Source: a virus. From it: a DNA stretch of 64,000 nucleotides. Positions 1,606 through 31,030 of the stretch are shown piece after piece. The stretch's first letter is position 1. Each line of letters opens with the position of its first letter. The stretch covers positions 5,499 to 69,498 of the IMG/VR virus record IMGVR_UViG_3300026116_000004. The stretch is one strand, 5' to 3'. Made by a program: the position numbers and the translations under genes. Below the pieces are notes generated by a model, which saw only the letters and a program-made list of their open reading frames with translations, was not told the origin of the DNA and did no database searches.

Positions 1606-2685
1606 TCATTCAACCTCTGCAAAGTTGTCAGGTAACTTATCAACAGTGATATTGCCGTTCTTGAAATCTGCAATAAGTTTGCTTGCCTTTGCGAGTTTCG
1701 CCATCATCTTTTCATTCTTTTCACCAATTCTCTTCATAGCGTCTGTAGCATAGAAGAGTAAGCAAGGAAGGTCTTGAGGTTCAGACCTACGAATGAAATC
1801 TTCCCACTCAATATGAGTGACATTCGCGAGTTCCTGCCAACCATTGTCGTTGTAGATATCCCAATCTTCCAACAGATGTAACATCGCCTCAGACAATTGG
1901 AACTTGTTCTTGAATGGCATGGAGATCAGCGGCGATAGCTCTTTCGTAGAAGCTCTCGCGGTGGGAACACGAACGACTGAATTATTCTTCGCACGCGCCT
2001 CTTCCTCTCTTTTCTTCCTTTCCGCATCCAACCTCTCCTTTTCAGGACCACGCTGAACGGTGTTCCAATAATCATCGTTAGACGACTTGAAAGGTTGTCC
2101 TTGATCGAACGTCTTAGTGGACCAAGCTGCAGGAGAGAAGAAGTAAGGTTCCTGATCCGACGAGATAAGAAGACCTCTATTGTTCGACCCCGGCCAGAAC
2201 TTCTCCAAGATGTCTCTGACATACGGGTCTTCAAGATCAGCGATACCCCTTGTGCCCACTAAACGAGTGAGCATAGGTGTTAGCTGAAGTTCAGCATACC
2301 TACGGCTGTCAGATGCCCCCTGTAACGCCTCTGGATCGGTCTGCTGGCCCCTCCAAGCCTGCATGGTACCATTGTGCATGAAATACAACGAACGCTTCTT
2401 GGTGGACAGCACAGGGAACGGCTGGGTATTCGCCTCGTTAATTTCTCCTTCAGTTCTATGACGAAGATGAACAAAACGTTCAACATCCTCGTTATCCTTC
2501 AAAATCTTATAGATTTCTTGAGGATCACAAATCTTATCGTCAGAGTCCGAACAGCCCTTACGAACCTCAAGCTTTCCATTGGCCTTGAGGATAATGCCGT
2601 AACTATGCCAATTGTTGAACACACACGTCTCCAACTTCTCGTAAGGCAGAGTATAACCCGGCTGTTGAATAAAGATATTGCACAT
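1606..2685 (-). CDS. Class II (Ntn) glutamine amidotransferase
   Basis: True start MCNIF (catalytic Cys2) coupled by TAATG at 2685; HLRHRT, NTQPF, MHNG and SDS motifs. Confidence 0.85.
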   Translation of the reverse strand: MCNIFIQQPGYTLPYEKLETCVFNNWHSYGIILKANGKLEVRKGCSDSDDKICDPQEIYKILKDNEDVERFVHLRHRTEGEINEANTQPFPVLSTKKRSLYFMHNGTMQAWRGQQTDPEALQGASDSRRYAELQLTPMLTRLVGTRGIADLEDPYVRDILEKFWPGSNNRGLLISSDQEPYFFSPAAWSTKTFDQGQPFKSSNDDYWNTVQRGPEKERLDAERKKREEEARAKNNSVVRVPTARASTKELSPLISMPFKNKFQLSEAMLHLLEDWDIYNDNGWQELANVTHIEWEDFIRRSEPQDLPCLLFYATDAMKRIGEKNEKMMAKLAKASKLIADFKNGNITVDKLPDNFAEVE

Positions 2686-3071
2686 TACTTCGTTTCTTCC
2701 TTGCGCTCTAAAGACTTTTCCCAATCATCGTACGTTTTATATTCAGCTTTCGTATCTTTTTCCGTCCTAATGAGAGCCTTTGACCAGAGTTCAACAATAT
2801 TGTCTGTTTTCGATGAACGAAAGTAATCAACCTGCTTCCAACCATTGGTCCGGAGGATAGACTTCTCCTTTTCGTTGGTAGAAATGACAGTGCATAAAGC
2901 AAAATCATAACCGAACTTGCGAGCTGTGGTCAGTCTCTGTTCGTGTGCTACTTTACCACACCCTTTACCCCTGTTGTCTTTTGGTGTCCACACGTTGTGA
3001 AACACAGCAATCTGGTCACAGCCAGGTAACGAAGTGATCTCTGACACCACTCCTCCAACATTGTATCTCAT
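2685..3071 (-). CDS. GNAT-family acyltransferase
   Basis: RGKGCG acetyl-CoA loop; CTV...N...IL..NGW motif B. Confidence 0.75.
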   Translation of the reverse strand: MRYNVGGVVSEITSLPGCDQIAVFHNVWTPKDNRGKGCGKVAHEQRLTTARKFGYDFALCTVISTNEKEKSILRTNGWKQVDYFRSSKTDNIVELWSKALIRTEKDTKAEYKTYDDWEKSLERKEETK

Positions 3072-3838
3072 TGTGCTAAAGCCCTAGCATAGTTCTGAAC
3101 GGTAGTACCCGTAAGACCAGGTGCAGTATTAACCTCCAACACAAATGCCTTAACTCCCTTGCGCTTATCGTTATAAACGATGTCAACGGCACCGAAGTCA
3201 AGACCAGAATGTCTAATGGCCTCAATGGCGGCAGCTCTGACTTCATCTGGAGGGCGAATGTTTTCCCTCTGATAGATGAAACCATTTGCAAGGTTTCTGA
3301 TCTTCCAGTTGATGTCGTCACCACTGTCAGCCTTCTGCTTGGAGAGCACTTTACGCTGTTGGTCAATGATCTCGTTACCCACTACGTGAATACGATATTC
3401 TTCCGTCTTCTTTACGTATTCAGTATAAAGTGGAGCACGAACAAACCCATCAGGATGATCACGGTCCATAATAACAATACCGTTACCTGAATGACCATTA
3501 AGAACGGTACGAGCAACCACCACTTTGCCTTCTGCGCACCACCGGATGGCTTCTGCTTGGTCAGTCGTCCAGGGAGGAAGAATTTCATTGTTGCGTTCCG
3601 ACACCTTTCTAAAGAAGTCCAACTTGTTGGAAGCAATTCGGACAACTTCAGGCTTATTAATGATATTGCACTTTGCAACTTCAGGAGAAACTTGAGAAGA
3701 ACCCCAATTGATCACCCTCTTACGTTGTGATCCAACGAAACGAGAGTTTTCATTCTTGATTTTCGTGATACCCATTGCATCCTTGAGTGCAATAGCACCC
3801 TCAGAATGGGCATTCCATGAATAGATATAAGTAGGCAT
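3068..3838 (-). CDS. ATP-grasp peptide ligase (RimK-like, phage type)
   Basis: NKL, GHSGNGI, EYRIHV, DFGAVD and LEVNTAPG motifs. Confidence 0.9.
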   Translation of the reverse strand: MPTYIYSWNAHSEGAIALKDAMGITKIKNENSRFVGSQRKRVINWGSSQVSPEVAKCNIINKPEVVRIASNKLDFFRKVSERNNEILPPWTTDQAEAIRWCAEGKVVVARTVLNGHSGNGIVIMDRDHPDGFVRAPLYTEYVKKTEEYRIHVVGNEIIDQQRKVLSKQKADSGDDINWKIRNLANGFIYQRENIRPPDEVRAAAIEAIRHSGLDFGAVDIVYNDKRKGVKAFVLEVNTAPGLTGTTVQNYARALAQ

Positions 3839-5013
3839 TAGTCATTGTTTCTCCAAGGATCATTTACAACTGGCTGGTTTACCACACCACCAAGAATGTC
3901 ACCGCGTGCTTGACGAACAGGTATAGGACGAGCAGCTGCTCTTAAAGCTAAGTCTCTGATACGCTGCTCTTCCGCTTCCCAAGGGCGAATTGCTGCATCA
4001 CCATCGTCGAACTCAGCCTGAGGAATTTCTACATCGCCACCTTGACGAAGCACGGCGAGTTGTTCAATACCGCGCAGCTCTTCGAAAGGACGATTGTATA
4101 ACTGTCGGGCAATTGTGTCCAAGTCGGAAGACTTTACCTTCTTTGGTTTTTGGACAGCATCCAACTTGTCCCAACCCTTTGAGTCAGGAACTGATAACGC
4201 AATGTTAGCCGCATACCAGAAGTTATTCTCGATAAGTTTCGCTTCATCGTCAAACTTTAAGTTCTTTCTATACTTGCCAAAGATGTCCGTGAGTAGCTCT
4301 ACACCCTTGTCTTTGTAATTGTTGATGATATCCCCTGGATACATCTTGTCCTGACGAGAGAACTTGACAATCTCATGGAGAATACCAACCCAATCTTCAA
4401 TTTCCTTGATATCAGTCGTTCCTCTGAACGATCTTACTTCAAGAGAACCAAAGTTAGACAACGAATGAAGGTTCAACGCAGCATACTTAGTCAACTCACG
4501 GTCAAAGAGCATGTGTTGATAGTTCGGTTGTGATTTACCTTTCACTGTCGAAAGGTTCTTCAACATGTTAACAATGTTCTTGTAAGTCTCTTCTGCGTCA
4601 CACATAGGAAGACAAAACATGTTACCATTGCGTCCCTCACCTGAATACTTGATGAGTAGATTTTCAACGAGAGCGTATGTCGTTAAGAAGTTACCAAACG
4701 AAGGGAAACTCTCATTGAGCATGTTCACATGGACATGAACACTCGTTGTAATCGAATTTTTCTTGAAGTTAGCGTGAACTAACTTAGACTTGAACTCCTC
4801 AAGTGCCTGAGGGATCACATCGAAGTCCAGTGGTTGACGGAGTACGTACTCACGACCAAACCCACGGAGAGAACCATCTGCGTGAATATCCCAAAAGGCG
4901 AACTCGGGGATACGATACTCTGCATCGCTCTCCGTTTCGATCTCAAGACCGAACAAACCCTTATGTTTAGTAAAGGTTCGCCCAGTCTTTTCTAAAGCAT
5001 CACAAATCGACAT
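3838..5013 (-). CDS. Putative amidoligase (COOH-NH2 ligase, glutamine-synthetase-like fold)
   Basis: GLEIE, HADGSL, E, SVHVHVN, KYAALN and SLEVR motifs. Confidence 0.85.
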   Translation of the reverse strand: MSICDALEKTGRTFTKHKGLFGLEIETESDAEYRIPEFAFWDIHADGSLRGFGREYVLRQPLDFDVIPQALEEFKSKLVHANFKKNSITTSVHVHVNMLNESFPSFGNFLTTYALVENLLIKYSGEGRNGNMFCLPMCDAEETYKNIVNMLKNLSTVKGKSQPNYQHMLFDRELTKYAALNLHSLSNFGSLEVRSFRGTTDIKEIEDWVGILHEIVKFSRQDKMYPGDIINNYKDKGVELLTDIFGKYRKNLKFDDEAKLIENNFWYAANIALSVPDSKGWDKLDAVQKPKKVKSSDLDTIARQLYNRPFEELRGIEQLAVLRQGGDVEIPQAEFDDGDAAIRPWEAEEQRIRDLALRAAARPIPVRQARGDILGGVVNQPVVNDPWRNND

Positions 5014-16646: not shown

Positions 16647-17225
16647 CTAGTCTTTGTTAGACTTAAATGGAAGAAATACTGTACCCTTTTTTTCATTCGG
16701 GTTTTTAACAGTTATTTTTTCTTTAGGTGGTGCTCCCGTTTGAGTAAAAGGCATGTACTTCTTTACCGTTCCATCTTTTGCAAACGACCTATACTTAAAG
16801 TCGTCTGGTTCAGGATGAAAACCATCATTACCAGTTGCGATTGTAACGGGTTTAGGTTTGATCTTTGCTCGTTTATCTTCAACGTTCTTGATGTGCATTG
16901 CCATTTCTTCCTTCAAAGTTTGTTTACGCTTTACAACTGCATCGTCCAAACCTTGGAGTTTATTCATCCGTTTTTGCATGATGAAATAAAGCTTATTTTT
17001 GTTCAATATAGAACGCTCTATTTCCGCACGCTGTACAGGTTCCCTAATCCCACGATGGATCAAGTGTTTTATTTGTGCTTCCACTTGTTTCATCTTTCGG
17101 GCAAGCTTGTGAATTTGTTCCTTTATAGGGACTTCCTTCACGTTTAATTCCAGGTGCCCTCTCATTTGGCCACTAAATGACCTTTGATGGGTAACGTCTT
17201 TCCAGTCTCTTGAAATCTTTGTCAT
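16647..17225 (-). CDS. Hypothetical basic coiled-coil protein
   Basis: Likely start MTKIS after GGA; lies between two terminators. Confidence 0.7.
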   Translation of the reverse strand: MTKISRDWKDVTHQRSFSGQMRGHLELNVKEVPIKEQIHKLARKMKQVEAQIKHLIHRGIREPVQRAEIERSILNKNKLYFIMQKRMNKLQGLDDAVVKRKQTLKEEMAMHIKNVEDKRAKIKPKPVTIATGNDGFHPEPDDFKYRSFAKDGTVKKYMPFTQTGAPPKEKITVKNPNEKKGTVFLPFKSNKD

Positions 17226-17265
17226 TGGTTTTTCCAGTCCCAAGTTTTCAAAGGTATTTAAACGC

Positions 17266-17311
17266 AAAAAACCCCACGCCAAGACAATGAAGCCTTGAAA
17301 CGTGGGGTTTC
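17266..17311 (-). terminator. Intrinsic terminator
   Basis: AAACCCCACG/CGTGGGGTTT stem with a U-run on the minus strand, just after the stop of 17329..18135. Confidence 0.8.
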
Positions 17312-17328
17312 TTTAGTTCACGTTGCCG

Positions 17329-18135
17329 TTAAGCCGAAACGCGATTTTCGCTTTCCGTTGCAGGCTTATTGCCGCCGGTCTGACCGACAGCCGTATCGGT
17401 TTCTTCCGAGATTTCTTCCTTCGGAATAGACTTGCCAGCGGCTTCACTTGCCGTTGCCAAATCATCGATTTCCTTCCGGCTCTTTGCGTCAAGCGGGCTG
17501 GAATTGACCATACGCAGAAGTTCGACGCGACCCATGCCGGAATGAGGCAAGTCTTTCGCAATGCGCTTGAAGGCCGAGATAAGGCCAGAAAGTGCCTTTG
17601 CCGGCGTGAGAACGTTGTCGGTTGCCGCCTGTTGAGGCGTAACCCAAGCAATCTCACGAAACTCGCCTTCGGTCTTGGAACGAGCATTCTTAAGCCCGTC
17701 CTTGATCGCTTGCGCAATTTCCGGCTTGTCCGACTTGTTAATGGTGAAAAACTCGCCGGTGTTCTTGCCGTCCTTCATAGGCTTGGCCGTGAACTTGAAG
17801 AAAGGAACCGGGCGGACTTTCCACTTGGTTTCATCTTCGGGATCACGCTGGCCGCCGATGCCATACGCATCCATCACGTTGTTGACGTAATAGGCGCGAA
17901 AGGCCAAACTGTCCTTCGGATGCATTTCCGAAAACAGCATGTTCATGTAAACGCAGCGTCCGTGCTGTATGGCGAACCAAACAGCCGCAGCGGCGCCATC
18001 GGCGATTGTATTGAAGCTTTCGTGTGACGCTTTGACGGCAAGGCCGACAAGACGCTTCACGCGTTGCTCTTCGGTTTCCTGCTTACCCTTGTCGACATTG
18101 GCCGCACGGGTTGTAGCAATTGAGACCTTAGCCAT
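17329..18135 (-). CDS. Hypothetical early protein, probably highly expressed
   Basis: GGAAGGA RBS; GC3-rich codons; own terminator. Confidence 0.85.
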   Translation of the reverse strand: MAKVSIATTRAANVDKGKQETEEQRVKRLVGLAVKASHESFNTIADGAAAAVWFAIQHGRCVYMNMLFSEMHPKDSLAFRAYYVNNVMDAYGIGGQRDPEDETKWKVRPVPFFKFTAKPMKDGKNTGEFFTINKSDKPEIAQAIKDGLKNARSKTEGEFREIAWVTPQQAATDNVLTPAKALSGLISAFKRIAKDLPHSGMGRVELLRMVNSSPLDAKSRKEIDDLATASEAAGKSIPKEEISEETDTAVGQTGGNKPATESENRVSA

Positions 18136-18230
18136 AACTGTTATTCCTTCCATTTTGGTTTAGCTTTGTCATGAAACGAAAAAGACGCAAAGAGACAAAG
18201 CATAAGCCTTGCGCCCATCGCGTTCCATAA

Positions 18231-18252
18231 CTTATTCGATTGTCAAACAACA
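18231..18252 (-). promoter_or_regulatory. rrn-type boxA antitermination element (copy 2)
   Basis: TGTTGTTTGACAATCGAATAAG; no -10 element at 17 nt from the embedded TTGACA. Confidence 0.6.
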
Positions 18253-18254
18253 CA

Positions 18255-18570
18255 CATTGGACCGTGTTGCGCATTAAGCAATCGATGCAAACCTTGCTCT
18301 AGGATTTTGGACATACCTAGAGTGTACTCCAAAAACGGTTTCCCGTTTGGAGAATAGGTTTGACGCCACTAGCGCCGGACCCTACCCCGCAAATGCGGTA
18401 CCTTGTCACCTCGAAAGGCGGTTGCGGGAAACCCTATGGCTTGGCACCTACAGGCACGAAGCGCGGCGGATCGGCCGCAGACAAGGCAAAAAGCCCATTC
18501 CGGACATATGCTCACAGATTGTTCCGCCTGGAAAGTCACTTAGTGTTTCACTATGTAACAATCCGTGATC
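18255..18570 (-). ncRNA. Large multi-stem structured RNA / 5' leader
   Basis: About 10 nested stems; G-U pairs and UUCG/GAAA tetraloops on the minus strand. Confidence 0.65.
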
Positions 18571-18594
18571 CTTGTGTGTCTCATATATTGAGTA

Positions 18595-18609
18595 GAACAA
18601 ATAGAGAAC
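18595..18609 (-). promoter_or_regulatory. Alphaproteobacterial LexA (SOS) box
   Basis: GAAC-AAATAGA-GAAC on plus = GTTC-N7-GTTC on minus. Confidence 0.7.
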
Positions 18610-18813
18610 GTATTCCAGGGGAGATTGGAGCTAGGCAATGGGGTTAGATAGGGTCTATTCAGCCCGTAGAGCGCGCTACAGTCGTTTCTCCCATTGATAG
18701 GGTATCACACACTCACTTTTGAGAACGCAACTGTAGGACCCCTACAAAGGCGATTTAAGAGCTATCACTAAACGTCAATGGATAGGAATATTTTCCTAAA
18801 AAGAATAACGCAA

Positions 18814-18849
18814 ATAGCTCCAAGAGCTTTTTAGGTCCCTTGGAGCTAT
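18814..18849 (-). terminator. Hairpin, probable terminator
   Basis: ATAGCTCCAAG/CTTGGAGCTAT 11-bp inverted repeat just after the stop of 18859..19074. Confidence 0.55.
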
Positions 18850-18858
18850 CTTTAAGTG

Positions 18859-19074
18859 TTATCTGTTATAAGCCTTGATTATTCGCTGTATAACCGTGTC
18901 ATCGTCACTAGGACTAGTACACATTATTGACTGTGATTTAGGATTATCACGCTTATCAGCGATTTGAGCCGCTCTAACCGTGTCTTTATCCCATGACCCA
19001 CAATCAAAACACCAAATCCTACCAGTTCGCACAAGCAAGAAATGGTATTGATTGAAAGCTAGATTGTTTCTCAT
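18859..19074 (-). CDS. Hypothetical early protein
   Basis: ATGA overlap. Confidence 0.6.
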   Translation of the reverse strand: MRNNLAFNQYHFLLVRTGRIWCFDCGSWDKDTVRAAQIADKRDNPKSQSIMCTSPSDDDTVIQRIIKAYNR

Positions 19075-19301
19075 TTGCCTGCTTGCTTTCTCGTTTGTTG
19101 ATACAACGCGTCGTTTGCTAGTCTACAAAAGTAACTTTGGTTAAGTTGGAAGTATTCAAAGTTAATGATGTTCCAAACTGCCCTTTCTTCTAGAATGCCA
19201 CCATAACGCGAGGCATTACGGAAGATTTCCGTAGCAACATCACTAGTTTGATTTCCAGCTAACCATGAATTACGAATGTATTTCACCATATCGTTACGCA
19301 T
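19071..19301 (-). CDS. Hypothetical early protein
   Basis: GGAAGGA RBS before MRNDM. Confidence 0.65.
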   Translation of the reverse strand: MRNDMVKYIRNSWLAGNQTSDVATEIFRNASRYGGILEERAVWNIINFEYFQLNQSYFCRLANDALYQQTRKQAGK

Positions 19302-19436
19302 AGTCTTTCCTTCCATTTTGACGTTTCACAAGAAAACACTCTGTTTTTGAGAGTGAATGCCTGTCATTCACAAGAGTTTAACAAAGCCGCCTGCTATTCT
19401 GGTTTCTAGATTAAATCATTAGTCGCTTATCAGCAA

Positions 19437-19676
19437 CTAAATCGGTTGTGTTAGTTCAATGACAAATAGACTGTCATCCATTACATACTCAATGCACCTA
19501 GTTTGATTGTCAGTTAAAGCATTGATAAGGTTTTCTACATTGGCAAATACTGGCATTTGCTTATGTGGATTGTCATGCTGTGACATATAGAAAAGTGATT
19601 GCTCTATATCACCTTCCTTTTTAGGTAGCTTACGTATCTTGATACTCTTGAAGATAGCTTTATTGACGAAAACCAT
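19437..19676 (-). CDS. Hypothetical early protein
   Basis: TAATG coupling. Confidence 0.6.
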   Translation of the reverse strand: MVFVNKAIFKSIKIRKLPKKEGDIEQSLFYMSQHDNPHKQMPVFANVENLINALTDNQTRCIEYVMDDSLFVIELTQPI

Positions 19677-20894: not shown

Positions 20895-20915
20895 CTTATT
20901 CAGTTGTCAAAGAGC
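20895..20915 (-). promoter_or_regulatory. rrn-type boxA antitermination element (copy 1)
   Basis: GCTCTTTGACAACTGAATAAG; compare E. coli boxA TGCTCTTTAACA. Confidence 0.75.
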
Positions 20916-20947
20916 GGGCTGATGTCCCTGGAAAGCACAGGTGAGCC

Positions 20948-20974
20948 ATAGTAGAACAAAAGTAGACCATACAA
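20948..20974 (-). promoter_or_regulatory. Early promoter with overlapping LexA-like box
   Basis: TTGTAT-GGTC-TACTTTT-GTTC-TACTAT: GGTC-N7-GTTC immediately before a -10-like TACTAT. Confidence 0.55.
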
Positions 20975-21060
20975 ATGTGGCAACAATAAGGCATGTCAAG
21001 CCGCTCGTTTCACTCGCTCGTCACGCTCTTCGAGCGCTCCAGCCCCTAAATCGTACAACC

Positions 21061-30178: not shown

Positions 30179-31030
30179 ATGACAAAATACCGTAATGATG
30201 AACGTGATCGTCTTTTAGACGAAGAGTTAGCCGCAGAAGAGGCTGCTTATCGTAAGCAGTTCGGCCCCAAGACTGAAGAAGTCACGGAGGTTGATCCTCC
30301 TGCGGTAACTCAGGACGAGGAAGTCTGGAAAAAGCGTCATTCTGACCTTAGGAGTTATACTCAGAAGCAGATTAATGACCTAAACTCGAAGATCAACGAA
30401 CTTACTAAGCAGTTAGGTGAGAAAGAAAAGTCTCACGCTATGCCTGCTAATAGAGAAGAAGTTGAACAGTGGGTTAAAGACTATCCCGACCTAGCACGTG
30501 TCCTCGGTAATCTCATTGATGAGAGAGCAGAAAGACAAGTTTCGTCCGTTTCTGACGAAGTTAAGACAGTTAAAATGGAATTGGAAGCCGAAAGAGAAGC
30601 AATTGCTTACGAAAGAGCGATGGCTGCCATCATTAAGGCACATCCTGACTTCTTAACGCTCGTTAATCAGGACGATTTCAAGGAATGGGTTGAAGAACAG
30701 CCCGTTAAGAGAGGTCCACGTATCGGTCAAGCCCTTTACGATGCTCTCTATGAGAATAAAACCGATGCTGAAGCCGCTATTCAGGCAATCAACATCTTTA
30801 AAGCCGATAAATCGGCAAGCAAACCGAGTAAAGCACCCCGTGAGGCTGCTCTTTCGGTTTCTAGAACATCTTCGGCCTCTCCGTCACCTACTGGTGGTGG
30901 TAAGCGTGTCTTCACTGAGAGTGAAATCGACGCTATGGATCGTTTTACTTTCGATAAGTACTACGAAGAGATCGAAGACGCAAGACGTGAAGGAAGAATT
31001 ACTTACGATCAGAGCGGAGCCGCTCGCTAA
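30179..31030 (+). CDS. Capsid scaffolding protein
   Basis: Coiled coil, WKKRHSDLR, HPDF, C-terminal FTESEI..M...EGRI; upstream of MCP. Confidence 0.85.
   Translation: MTKYRNDERDRLLDEELAAEEAAYRKQFGPKTEEVTEVDPPAVTQDEEVWKKRHSDLRSYTQKQINDLNSKINELTKQLGEKEKSHAMPANREEVEQWVKDYPDLARVLGNLIDERAERQVSSVSDEVKTVKMELEAEREAIAYERAMAAIIKAHPDFLTLVNQDDFKEWVEEQPVKRGPRIGQALYDALYENKTDAEAAIQAINIFKADKSASKPSKAPREAALSVSRTSSASPSPTGGGKRVFTESEIDAMDRFTFDKYYEEIEDARREGRITYDQSGAAR

Follow-up and report, generated by a model that had tools for sequence, protein, structure and literature searches.

What kind of element is the GC-rich stretch at positions 18255-18570 of a phage genome, set in a gap between two genes? The stretch belongs to a window of 64,000 nucleotides (nt), which is the whole stretch of DNA analysed here and corresponds to bases 5499-69498 of IMG/VR record IMGVR_UViG_3300026116_000004; the source record comprises 69,498 bases, has direct terminal repeats and is rated complete. 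The gap is 723 nt long and separates a 71-amino-acid (aa) open reading frame (ORF; 18859-19074) from the gene at 17329-18135. The large terminase is 52-57% identical to those of Roseobacter CRP phages, Sinorhizobium phage phiM6, Rhizobium phage RHph_N3_19 and Puniceispirillum phage HMO-2011, and phiM6 is assigned in one account to the HMO-2011-type marine phage group (PMC6256558). Public sequencing runs that contain the stretch are rhizosphere and soil metagenomes.

The original prediction, made from the letters of the sequence, took 18255-18570 for a multidomain structured RNA of no recognisable family. That observation is partly confirmed, and the first reading of it is partly supported. Our preferred explanation, to which we give about an even chance, is that the flagged stretch forms the GC-rich centre of a ~455-nt untranslated, cis-acting 5' leader that is rich in hairpins and was expanded in this lineage specifically. 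What is new here is the architecture, in which one leader module is used twice and one of its copies is expanded.

A proposed leader module used twice

Three motifs, TTTGTTCTACT, CTTTCCAGG and TTTGACAAYYGAATAAG, each occur exactly twice in the 69,498 bases when both strands are counted, and the two resulting trios, at 18601-18231 and 20960-20895, have the same order and lie on the same strand. At the 20960-20895 locus, CUUUCCAGG is separated from the boxA-type motif by 15 nt, whereas the spacing at the flagged locus is ~275 nt, an interval that coincides with a block of 54.3% GC. Because this interval is a GC-rich non-coding block, the flagged RNA is best described as an expansion segment in a duplicated leader module. 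The block (18251-18530, 280 nt) stands against a genome average of 43.0% GC and flanks of 39-40%, which bears out the predicted GC-rich island in AT-rich surroundings. It is among the top 1.3% of 280-nt windows for GC; seven GC runs are listed at this level, and from our comparison with the ORF list all but this one are coding. Its edges coincide with the two shared motifs.

The surroundings of the expanded copy have the layout of a transcription unit: a terminator-like hairpin lies upstream, and on the downstream side a ribosome-binding site is followed by a real gene and then by a terminator-like repeat. This layout argues for a leader, and coordinates are collected in Table 1.

Translations of four ORFs of the stretch had no Pfam match, and GC content by codon position showed no 3-base periodicity (0.59/0.52/0.53, compared with 0.62/0.44/0.57 in the neighbouring gene). 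ORFs of 46-95 aa are present, for example one of 56 aa (18539-18369, minus strand) and one of 95 aa (18360-18647, plus strand), and on their account a hidden small gene could be proposed. Of the explanations considered, this is the one to which we give the least credence. Single-nucleotide insertions after 18388, 18397 and 18438 in X4, a natural variant described below, shift the frame in every ORF that crosses them; tblastx found no peptide common to the stretch and the leader of a related phage, G001; and, by our reading, no Shine-Dalgarno sequence precedes the GTG of the 56-aa minus-strand ORF. On the grounds of the Pfam search, the periodicity and the X4 insertions, the stretch is non-coding, as the original prediction had implied. 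A coding remnant was also considered and rejected, given the Pfam, periodicity and tblastx results. Two further candidates were discarded, namely a transfer RNA (tRNA) or transfer-messenger RNA (tmRNA), none being detected in 17000-19500, and a miniature inverted-repeat transposable element, as no terminal inverted repeats were seen at the segment edges when these were inspected by eye only.

The lack of a recognisable family was borne out by Rfam 15. None of its 4227 models, which include riboswitches, group I/II introns, GOLLD, ROOL, 6S, tmRNA and RNase P, matches the region when membership is defined by a covariance-model score at or above the gathering threshold of the family. The only sub-threshold match in 18100-18900, DUF2800, lies outside the core and has an expectation value (E) of 1.9, with a score of 16.9 bits against a cut-off of 60.2.

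The second copy of the module is a compact early leader (20895-20999, minus strand) that carries CTTGACA, a 17-nt spacer shared with G001, TTTGTTCTACT, a small hairpin with CUUUCCAGG, and GCUCUUUGACA. The last of these, at 20915-20905, is its boxA-type motif and is identical over 11 nt to a sequence that lies 193 nt ahead of the 16S gene of an alphaproteobacterial genome (G301), with one mismatch to a second genome (G253). It also has one mismatch to the consensus GYTCTTTAANA, which is gamma-proteobacterial (given as such in PMC5725501). At the flagged locus, GUUGUUUGACA (18251-18241) matches the G301 ribosomal RNA (rrn) leader sequence GCUCUUUGACA at 9 of 11 positions, compared with 11 of 11 in the second leader. 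It has a G at consensus position 4, and an Escherichia coli boxA double mutant, C4T/T6C, is described as having lost SuhB association (PMC5725501); since position 4 is one of the two changed in that mutant, the G counts against boxA function.

The boxA-like 17-mer recurs intergenically in an alphaproteobacterial metagenome-assembled genome (G006), beside long palindromic repeats, which means that it is not confined to the leaders of rrn operons or phages; the 8 kb searched beside one of the G006 copies held no 16S gene. Among viral contigs, 48 stretches carried the 17-mer, of which only G001 is a relative, and a 21-mer search of genome contigs returned one match, in a bacterial genome that was otherwise dissimilar and had no rRNA within 8 kb of it. 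With a copy that is degenerate and predicted to be paired, and with the 17-mer found elsewhere, the boxA identity of 18251-18231 is only plausible. Three of the G006 loci (L136, L137 and L143) carry GGGYUGUUUGACAAUYGAAUAAG.

On the other side of the stretch lies a GTTC-N7-GTTC box (18609-18595), which we take to be of the alphaproteobacterial LexA type. The predicted placement of the stretch between a LexA box and a boxA thus holds to the extent that this box and the boxA-like motif flank it. The 69.5 kb contain nine exact GTTC-N7-GTTC matches on both strands, where we estimate ~2 to be expected at random, and most of them appear, from the ORF list, to lie inside long ORFs.

The adjoining LexA-type boxes, and a GAAC-N7-GAAC box that G001 retains with inverted orientation, as would be expected of a DNA site, would suit an element that acts at the DNA level, for example an origin, an array of protein-binding sites or a recombination site. 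Such an element is nevertheless very unlikely. Among the 20 of 22 repeat families listed, 18136-18612 holds only the direct repeats D8 (18591-18612), which lies at its upstream edge, and D13 (18341-18358, 78% identical to a copy at 16734), with no iteron-like array. Moreover, the minus strand of 18255-18570 has a folding energy 15 kcal/mol more favourable than that of the plus strand, and more G-U pairs in its minimum-energy fold (12 of 105, compared with 7 of 91), although an asymmetry of this kind is typical of the genome.

Predicted fold, natural variants and relatives

Pair probabilities (p) were taken from the partition function of the whole leader, 18600-18136 (465 nt), on the minus strand, for which the centroid lies near the minimum-energy fold. 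Many of the local helices named in the original prediction are present, among them the 12-bp stem of domain 1, CCUUGUC/GACAAGG, CUCUAGG/CCUAGAG and the GAAA-capped hairpin, the last with p ~1.0 (Table 1). The CUUUCCAGG motif (18535-18527), one of two copies in the genome, lies within domain 1. The inner helices of 18401-18486 are ambiguous, with alternatives in competition. The two proposed outer closures, CCGGA/UCCGG and AAACCU/AGGUUU, have p of 0.00 and 0.01, respectively, and are both displaced by GGUAGG/CCUAUU (p 0.76), so that the energy model disfavours a three-domain grouping. Of the three predicted domains, the local helices therefore remain, while the closures and a central junction that folds no better than shuffled sequence do not.

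Folding energies were compared with those of shuffled sequences and expressed as z-scores. For the whole 465-nt leader on the minus strand, the energy was -167.1 kcal/mol, compared with -136.5 ± 5.6 kcal/mol for shuffles (z -5.50, 0/100 as good). The flagged 18255-18570 gave z -2.77 on the minus strand (1/100 as good) and -1.54 on the plus strand, and 18240-18590 gave -3.86 on the minus strand. In a sliding scan of 120-nt windows (n=65), the windows of the hairpin-bearing part, 18440-18241, had z of -2.5 to -2.9, except 18420-18301 at -1.49; nearby coding windows reached -3.8.

An enclosing helix of 8+5 pairs is possible in the fold of 18240-18590. Together with the z-score of that segment, the sharp edges of the GC island, well-defined hairpins with GNRA- and UUCG-type loops, and the lack of a match to known families, this helix would suit a discrete RNA of a new class that is part of the leader or processed from it. 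Such an RNA could be a riboswitch-like sensor of a ligand or protein, a decoy, or a trans-acting non-coding RNA (ncRNA) cleaved at ACACACA/UGUGUGU (18579-18573/18256-18250). We regard it as improbable. The enclosing helix has p of only 0.21 in the whole-leader ensemble, no conserved junction is identifiable where inner helices compete with alternatives, and processing or independent ends are without evidence; relatives were not found, and hence covariation offers no evidence. Roles as a riboswitch, a put-like element, a decoy or a free ncRNA are speculation.

Two diverged natural variants, X2 and X4, were found in sequencing reads. The X2 differences listed (40 of the 148 rows of the substitution table, all coding) fall in the 655 nt of 17335-17989, and third codon positions account for most of them; the variant proteins differ at only ~8 residues. 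For the 1111 nt of 17990-19100, the table implies at most 20 of 60 differences, at least 6 of which lie in codons 2-19, as judged from the protein differences. From these counts, the non-coding part diverges far less than the synonymous sites of 17335-17989. X4 has its three 1-nt insertions in the 465-nt leader and none in the gene, compared with six insertions or deletions (indels) in the 258 nt upstream of 18600; the insertion after 18438 sits at a loop edge. Both the smaller number of X4 indels in the leader than in the upstream spacer and the low X2 divergence were counted in favour of a leader.

The related phage G001 (68,296 bases, terminal repeats, large terminase 62% identical) conserves the second leader, 20895-20999, with 72% identity over 116 nt. 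Its locus syntenic with the flagged one (2250-4006) comprises a terminator, a GAACAAATCGAGAAC box that overlaps a copy of the promoter spacer, a ~860-nt leader with few ORFs, and a GC-rich orphan gene of 249 aa. The GAACAAATCGAGAAC box agrees at 14/15 nt with the plus-strand reading in the window, its orientation to the gene being opposite, and the box region aligned, inverted, to G001 2353-2368 with 15/16 nt matched. A strong hairpin (z ~-6) stands just before the start codon in the G001 leader. That G001 keeps the second leader and has a long leader at the syntenic place also counted for the leader reading.

The flagged sequence itself was looked for more widely. Searches with blastn found no homologue of the leader in phage and plasmid collections, and only matches of 17-30 nt (E >= 1.3) in 80 loci related by large terminase, where nhmmer found none; phiM6 50000-68176 likewise held no homologue. 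Among 401 alphaproteobacterial genomes, 13 had matches of 22-35 nt, and 8 of the 15 matched places were inspected and proved unrelated, in mostly coding-like GC-rich contexts and with no similarity in the flanks. No donor sequence for the GC segment was found in these genomes or in the phage or plasmid collections.

A number of these and further results weigh against a structured leader, beginning with the boxA-like motif, given its G at position 4 and its pairing in the predicted fold. By the measure that the original prediction set for itself, folding energy relative to shuffles, the whole leader stands out, whereas the GC core alone (18251-18530) does not (z -1.72, 11/200 as good); significance over chance thus depends on the boundaries chosen. 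The 120-nt windows across the central junction, 18560-18341, have z of only -0.7 to +0.8. When the energies of 300-nt windows were regressed on GC content (n=531), the residual z of the leader was -2.28 (rank 3/531) and -2.01, while an adjacent coding window had -2.19, and z <= -5.5 was reached by 2 of 19 evenly spaced 465-nt control windows on the sense strand. Against the background of its own genome, then, the leader is unremarkable to moderately unusual.

Sequence variation adds to this list. The X4 insertions after 18388 and 18397 flank the hairpin 18398-18387 without, by our reading, a clean inserted pair. The low X2 divergence could be due to constraint or to a recombination block, and mosaicism of the latter kind would take this support away from the leader. 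A putative -35/-10 region at 18638-18610 has 5 indels in X4, which leaves the promoter unplaced. No leader homologue was found in any of the searches, and covariation evidence is consequently lacking. The syntenic G001 leader cannot be aligned with the flagged one, and its 5' 500 nt have z -0.13; the comparison of the two sequences therefore indicates that a long leader is conserved at this position and that the flagged RNA is not.

In a rival reading, no structure is under selection: the 280-nt segment would be a lineage-specific insertion or relic in a leader, with the hairpins of any 54%-GC sequence of its length, and only the short shared motifs and the terminators would be functional. The weak GC core, the central windows with z ~0, the modest background rank, the matching controls, the X4 insertions that do not keep the hairpin as a pair and the absence of the segment from G001 and phiM6 all favour this alternative. 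So does the behaviour of the strands. The original prediction had read A-C mismatches that become G-U pairs on the minus strand as a sign of selection on RNA structure, and the minus strand does have more G-U pairs; yet in minus-gene territory the minus strand folds better by a mean of 8.4 kcal/mol (standard deviation 9.7) per 300 nt, and the 14.4 kcal/mol of the region departs from that mean by no more than about one standard deviation, so that the argument for selection fails the background control. On the other side stand the exclusively non-coding status of the segment among the listed GC runs, with edges at shared motifs, its lack of coding periodicity and of a donor, several helices with p >= 0.95, z of -2.5 to -3.5 in the windows of domain 1 and 18440-18241, and fewer X4 indels than in the upstream spacer. 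Overall, we consider the absence of selected structure a real but less likely explanation than an expanded leader.

In the leader that we propose, minus-strand transcription would start near 18590-18640 or arrive by read-through from upstream. The transcript would present TTTGTTCTACT, CUUUCCAGG in a hairpin and the boxA-type motif in the order of the 20960-20895 leader, with the 280-nt hairpin-rich expansion between the last two. It would act in cis, as a compact, mostly paired and untranslated RNA that offers few sites to Rho and RNases, and its fold would set the exposure of the boxA-like element and of the ribosome-binding site. In this way it may tune how one abundant early transcript is elongated, stabilised or translated. 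A bolder version, which we put forward as a long shot, holds that the 280-nt segment is a lineage-specific structured module that was inserted, with a boxB-like hairpin on one side and boxA on the other, into an early leader gated by SOS through a LexA box, in an alphaproteobacterial phage that looks lytic. As a sensor or a platform for factors, it would decide the exposure of boxA and the ribosome-binding site, and would represent either a new class of leader RNA that links a signal to elongation control of the Nus type or a new ncRNA of ~300 nt set free when the enclosing helix is cleaved.

The putative transcription unit and its gene

According to the ORF list, minus-strand genes occupy the genome left of ~21,000. 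A consensus scan of 18900-18136 found no sigma-70-like promoter on the minus strand, and the only terminator-like signal inside the region was a weak 5-pair hairpin with a U-run at 18505-18493. Two tRNA genes were matched in the window by a whole-window Rfam scan.

Table 1. Features of the flagged locus, ordered from the upstream to the downstream end of the minus strand.
Feature	Positions	Strand	Remarks
Intrinsic-terminator-like hairpin and U-run	18798-18849	-	Would close the transcript of the 71-aa ORF; 120-nt windows with z down to -7.7; inner 5-bp stem listed
GTTC-N7-GTTC box	18595-18609	-	Exact match; near-identical box at the syntenic place in G001
TTTGTTCTACT motif	18591-18601	-	Occurs exactly twice in the genome, here and at 20960-20950; repeat D8
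Domain 1: 12-bp stem 18568-18557/18523-18512, small three-way junction	18512-18568	-	p ~0.69 over 9 pairs; windows 18640-18501 with z -3.0 to -3.5
Sharply bounded GC-rich non-coding segment, the expansion between CUUUCCAGG and the boxA-like motif	18251-18530	-	54.3% GC
Multi-helix element closed by CCUUGUC/GACAAGG	18401-18486	-	Closing p 0.96; UGCGG/CCGCA 0.63; GUGCC/GGUGC 0.95; local z ~0
CCGC-AUUU-GCGG hairpin	18387-18398	-	p 0.99
GGUAGG/CCUAUU stem with inner hairpin	18353-18386	-	p 0.76
GAAA-capped hairpin	18327-18352	-	p 0.76-1.0
CUCUAGG/CCUAGAG hairpin	18297-18322	-	p 0.99
boxA-like motif GUUGUUUGACAAUCGAAUAAG	18231-18251	-	Base-paired within a hairpin of the minimum-energy fold
AT-richer 3' part of the leader, with more hairpins and ribosome-binding site GGAAGGAA at 18151-18144	18136-18230	-	Windows 18300-18141 with z -2.5 to -3.4
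268-aa gene downstream of the leader	17329-18135	-	Uncharacterised, metagenome-only protein family
Terminator-like inverted repeat right behind the stop codon of the gene	17261-17318	-	Inverted repeat I12; U-run read from the sequence

The gene behind the leader is listed as an ORF of 274 aa with its start at 18153. A database protein that is 97% identical (P0001) starts at the second ATG, at 18135, and this ATG is preceded by GGAAGGAA. The X2 differences are mostly at third codon positions and the proteins are 97% identical, from which we conclude that the 268-aa gene is real and under purifying selection. An identical 14-mer, CAAAAUGGAAGGAA on the minus strand, occurs at 18144-18157 and 19307-19320, each time ahead of a gene; at both sites, an in-frame ATG within the ribosome-binding site leads ORF finders to a start (MEG...) 5-6 codons early.

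A full HMMER scan yielded a family of 38 proteins at E <= 0.001, 17 of them at E <= 1e-10, mostly of 250-300 aa and with the conserved motifs HG..N.L, FG.GG and KW..RP; many members begin with MVT and end in -AA. Neither the 268-aa protein nor its family members or neighbours belong to a Pfam or PHROG family. A retron msr-msd was considered, and the same Pfam and PHROG comparisons of the protein and its neighbours gave no adjoining reverse-transcriptase family, although no genome-wide search for reverse transcriptases was made. With tblastn, three family members had no match to isolate phages in the phage collection. No related locus was found for the 268/274-aa protein in viral or metagenome contigs, for P0043 and P0048 in viral contigs, or for P0048 in metagenome contigs. 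The family profile (A1) matched only the phage's own gene among the ORFs of 81 loci, and matched 0 of 5 and 0 of 30 records in two further sets. The 249-aa protein of G001 has as its sole link to the family a weak profile match over HG..N.L (probability 15%, E 0.0018).

An AlphaFold2 model of the 268-aa protein has a predicted local distance difference test score (pLDDT) of 83.9. Foldseek found nothing in the PDB at E <= 0.001, and BFVD gave weak matches only, to uncharacterised podophage proteins (best E 1.6e-3). The best VIA-align Z was 6.5 over ~65 helical residues, a match that may reflect only a common helical arrangement of the model. In these three comparisons, no RNA- or DNA-binding fold was recognisable.

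A 234-aa ORF (17323-18027, plus strand) overlaps the gene in antisense and is probably a by-product of its GC richness; a similar sense/antisense pair is annotated in phiM6 (SmphiM6_102 and SmphiM6_103). Elsewhere in the window, the control segment 30200-30664 (plus strand), which lies in or beside a 283-aa ORF (30179-31030), had z -7.55 (20 shuffles).

Relation to known leader RNAs

If the leader is functional, the phage would be reusing one module of operator-like motif, hairpin and boxA twice, and expanding one copy with a large structured insert before a single abundant orphan gene. This would bear on the control of early transcription in alphaproteobacterial phages, which is little studied. 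The locus also draws attention to a protein family that is known only from metagenomes, has no known relatives and has its fold predicted with confidence. What gives the locus its value is chiefly the doubled leader module and this orphan family, and less a demonstrated new RNA; as an orphan whose thermodynamic support is moderate, the RNA opens no long-standing question.

The leaders of rrn operons and the nut sites of phage lambda, with a boxB hairpin, boxA and boxC, load Nus factors on RNA polymerase. PMC10250234 names boxB, boxA and boxC as cis elements. The phage module resembles these in that one or more hairpins are followed by a boxA-type motif early in the transcript, and the GCUCUUUGACA of the second leader is identical to an alphaproteobacterial rrn boxA. 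In contrast to them, the flagged leader places ~275 nt of additional structured RNA between its hairpin and boxA-like motifs, and its boxA-like copy differs at 2 of 11 positions and is paired in the predicted fold. The 17-mer is, moreover, a repeated intergenic motif of a metagenome-assembled genome, with no 16S gene in the 8 kb searched.

Long structured 5' leaders can also serve as translational operators of phage genes, as in gene 32 of phage T4. Like leaders of this type, the flagged one is untranslated and structured and precedes a single, apparently highly expressed phage gene with its own terminator; unlike them, it is much longer, and the 268-aa protein has no recognisable RNA- or DNA-binding fold. 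The put element of phage HK022 consists of two stem-loops of ~70 nt in total, lies close to the promoter in the early transcript and could act on the polymerase. The flagged RNA would share with it the promoter-proximal position in a phage early transcript but, at 280-455 nt, not the size. GOLLD and ROOL, which are large ncRNAs associated with phages, and the DUF2800 RNA, a cis-regulatory motif of phages, are comparable in size and setting, the flagged RNA lying in a phage genome with tRNA genes in the window, yet no Rfam threshold was reached, DUF2800 included. Finally, the flagged RNA recalls riboswitches in having several helices and in standing ahead of a ribosome-binding site within a 5' leader; unlike those, it has no identified conserved junction, ligand or expression platform, and it matches no known aptamer class.

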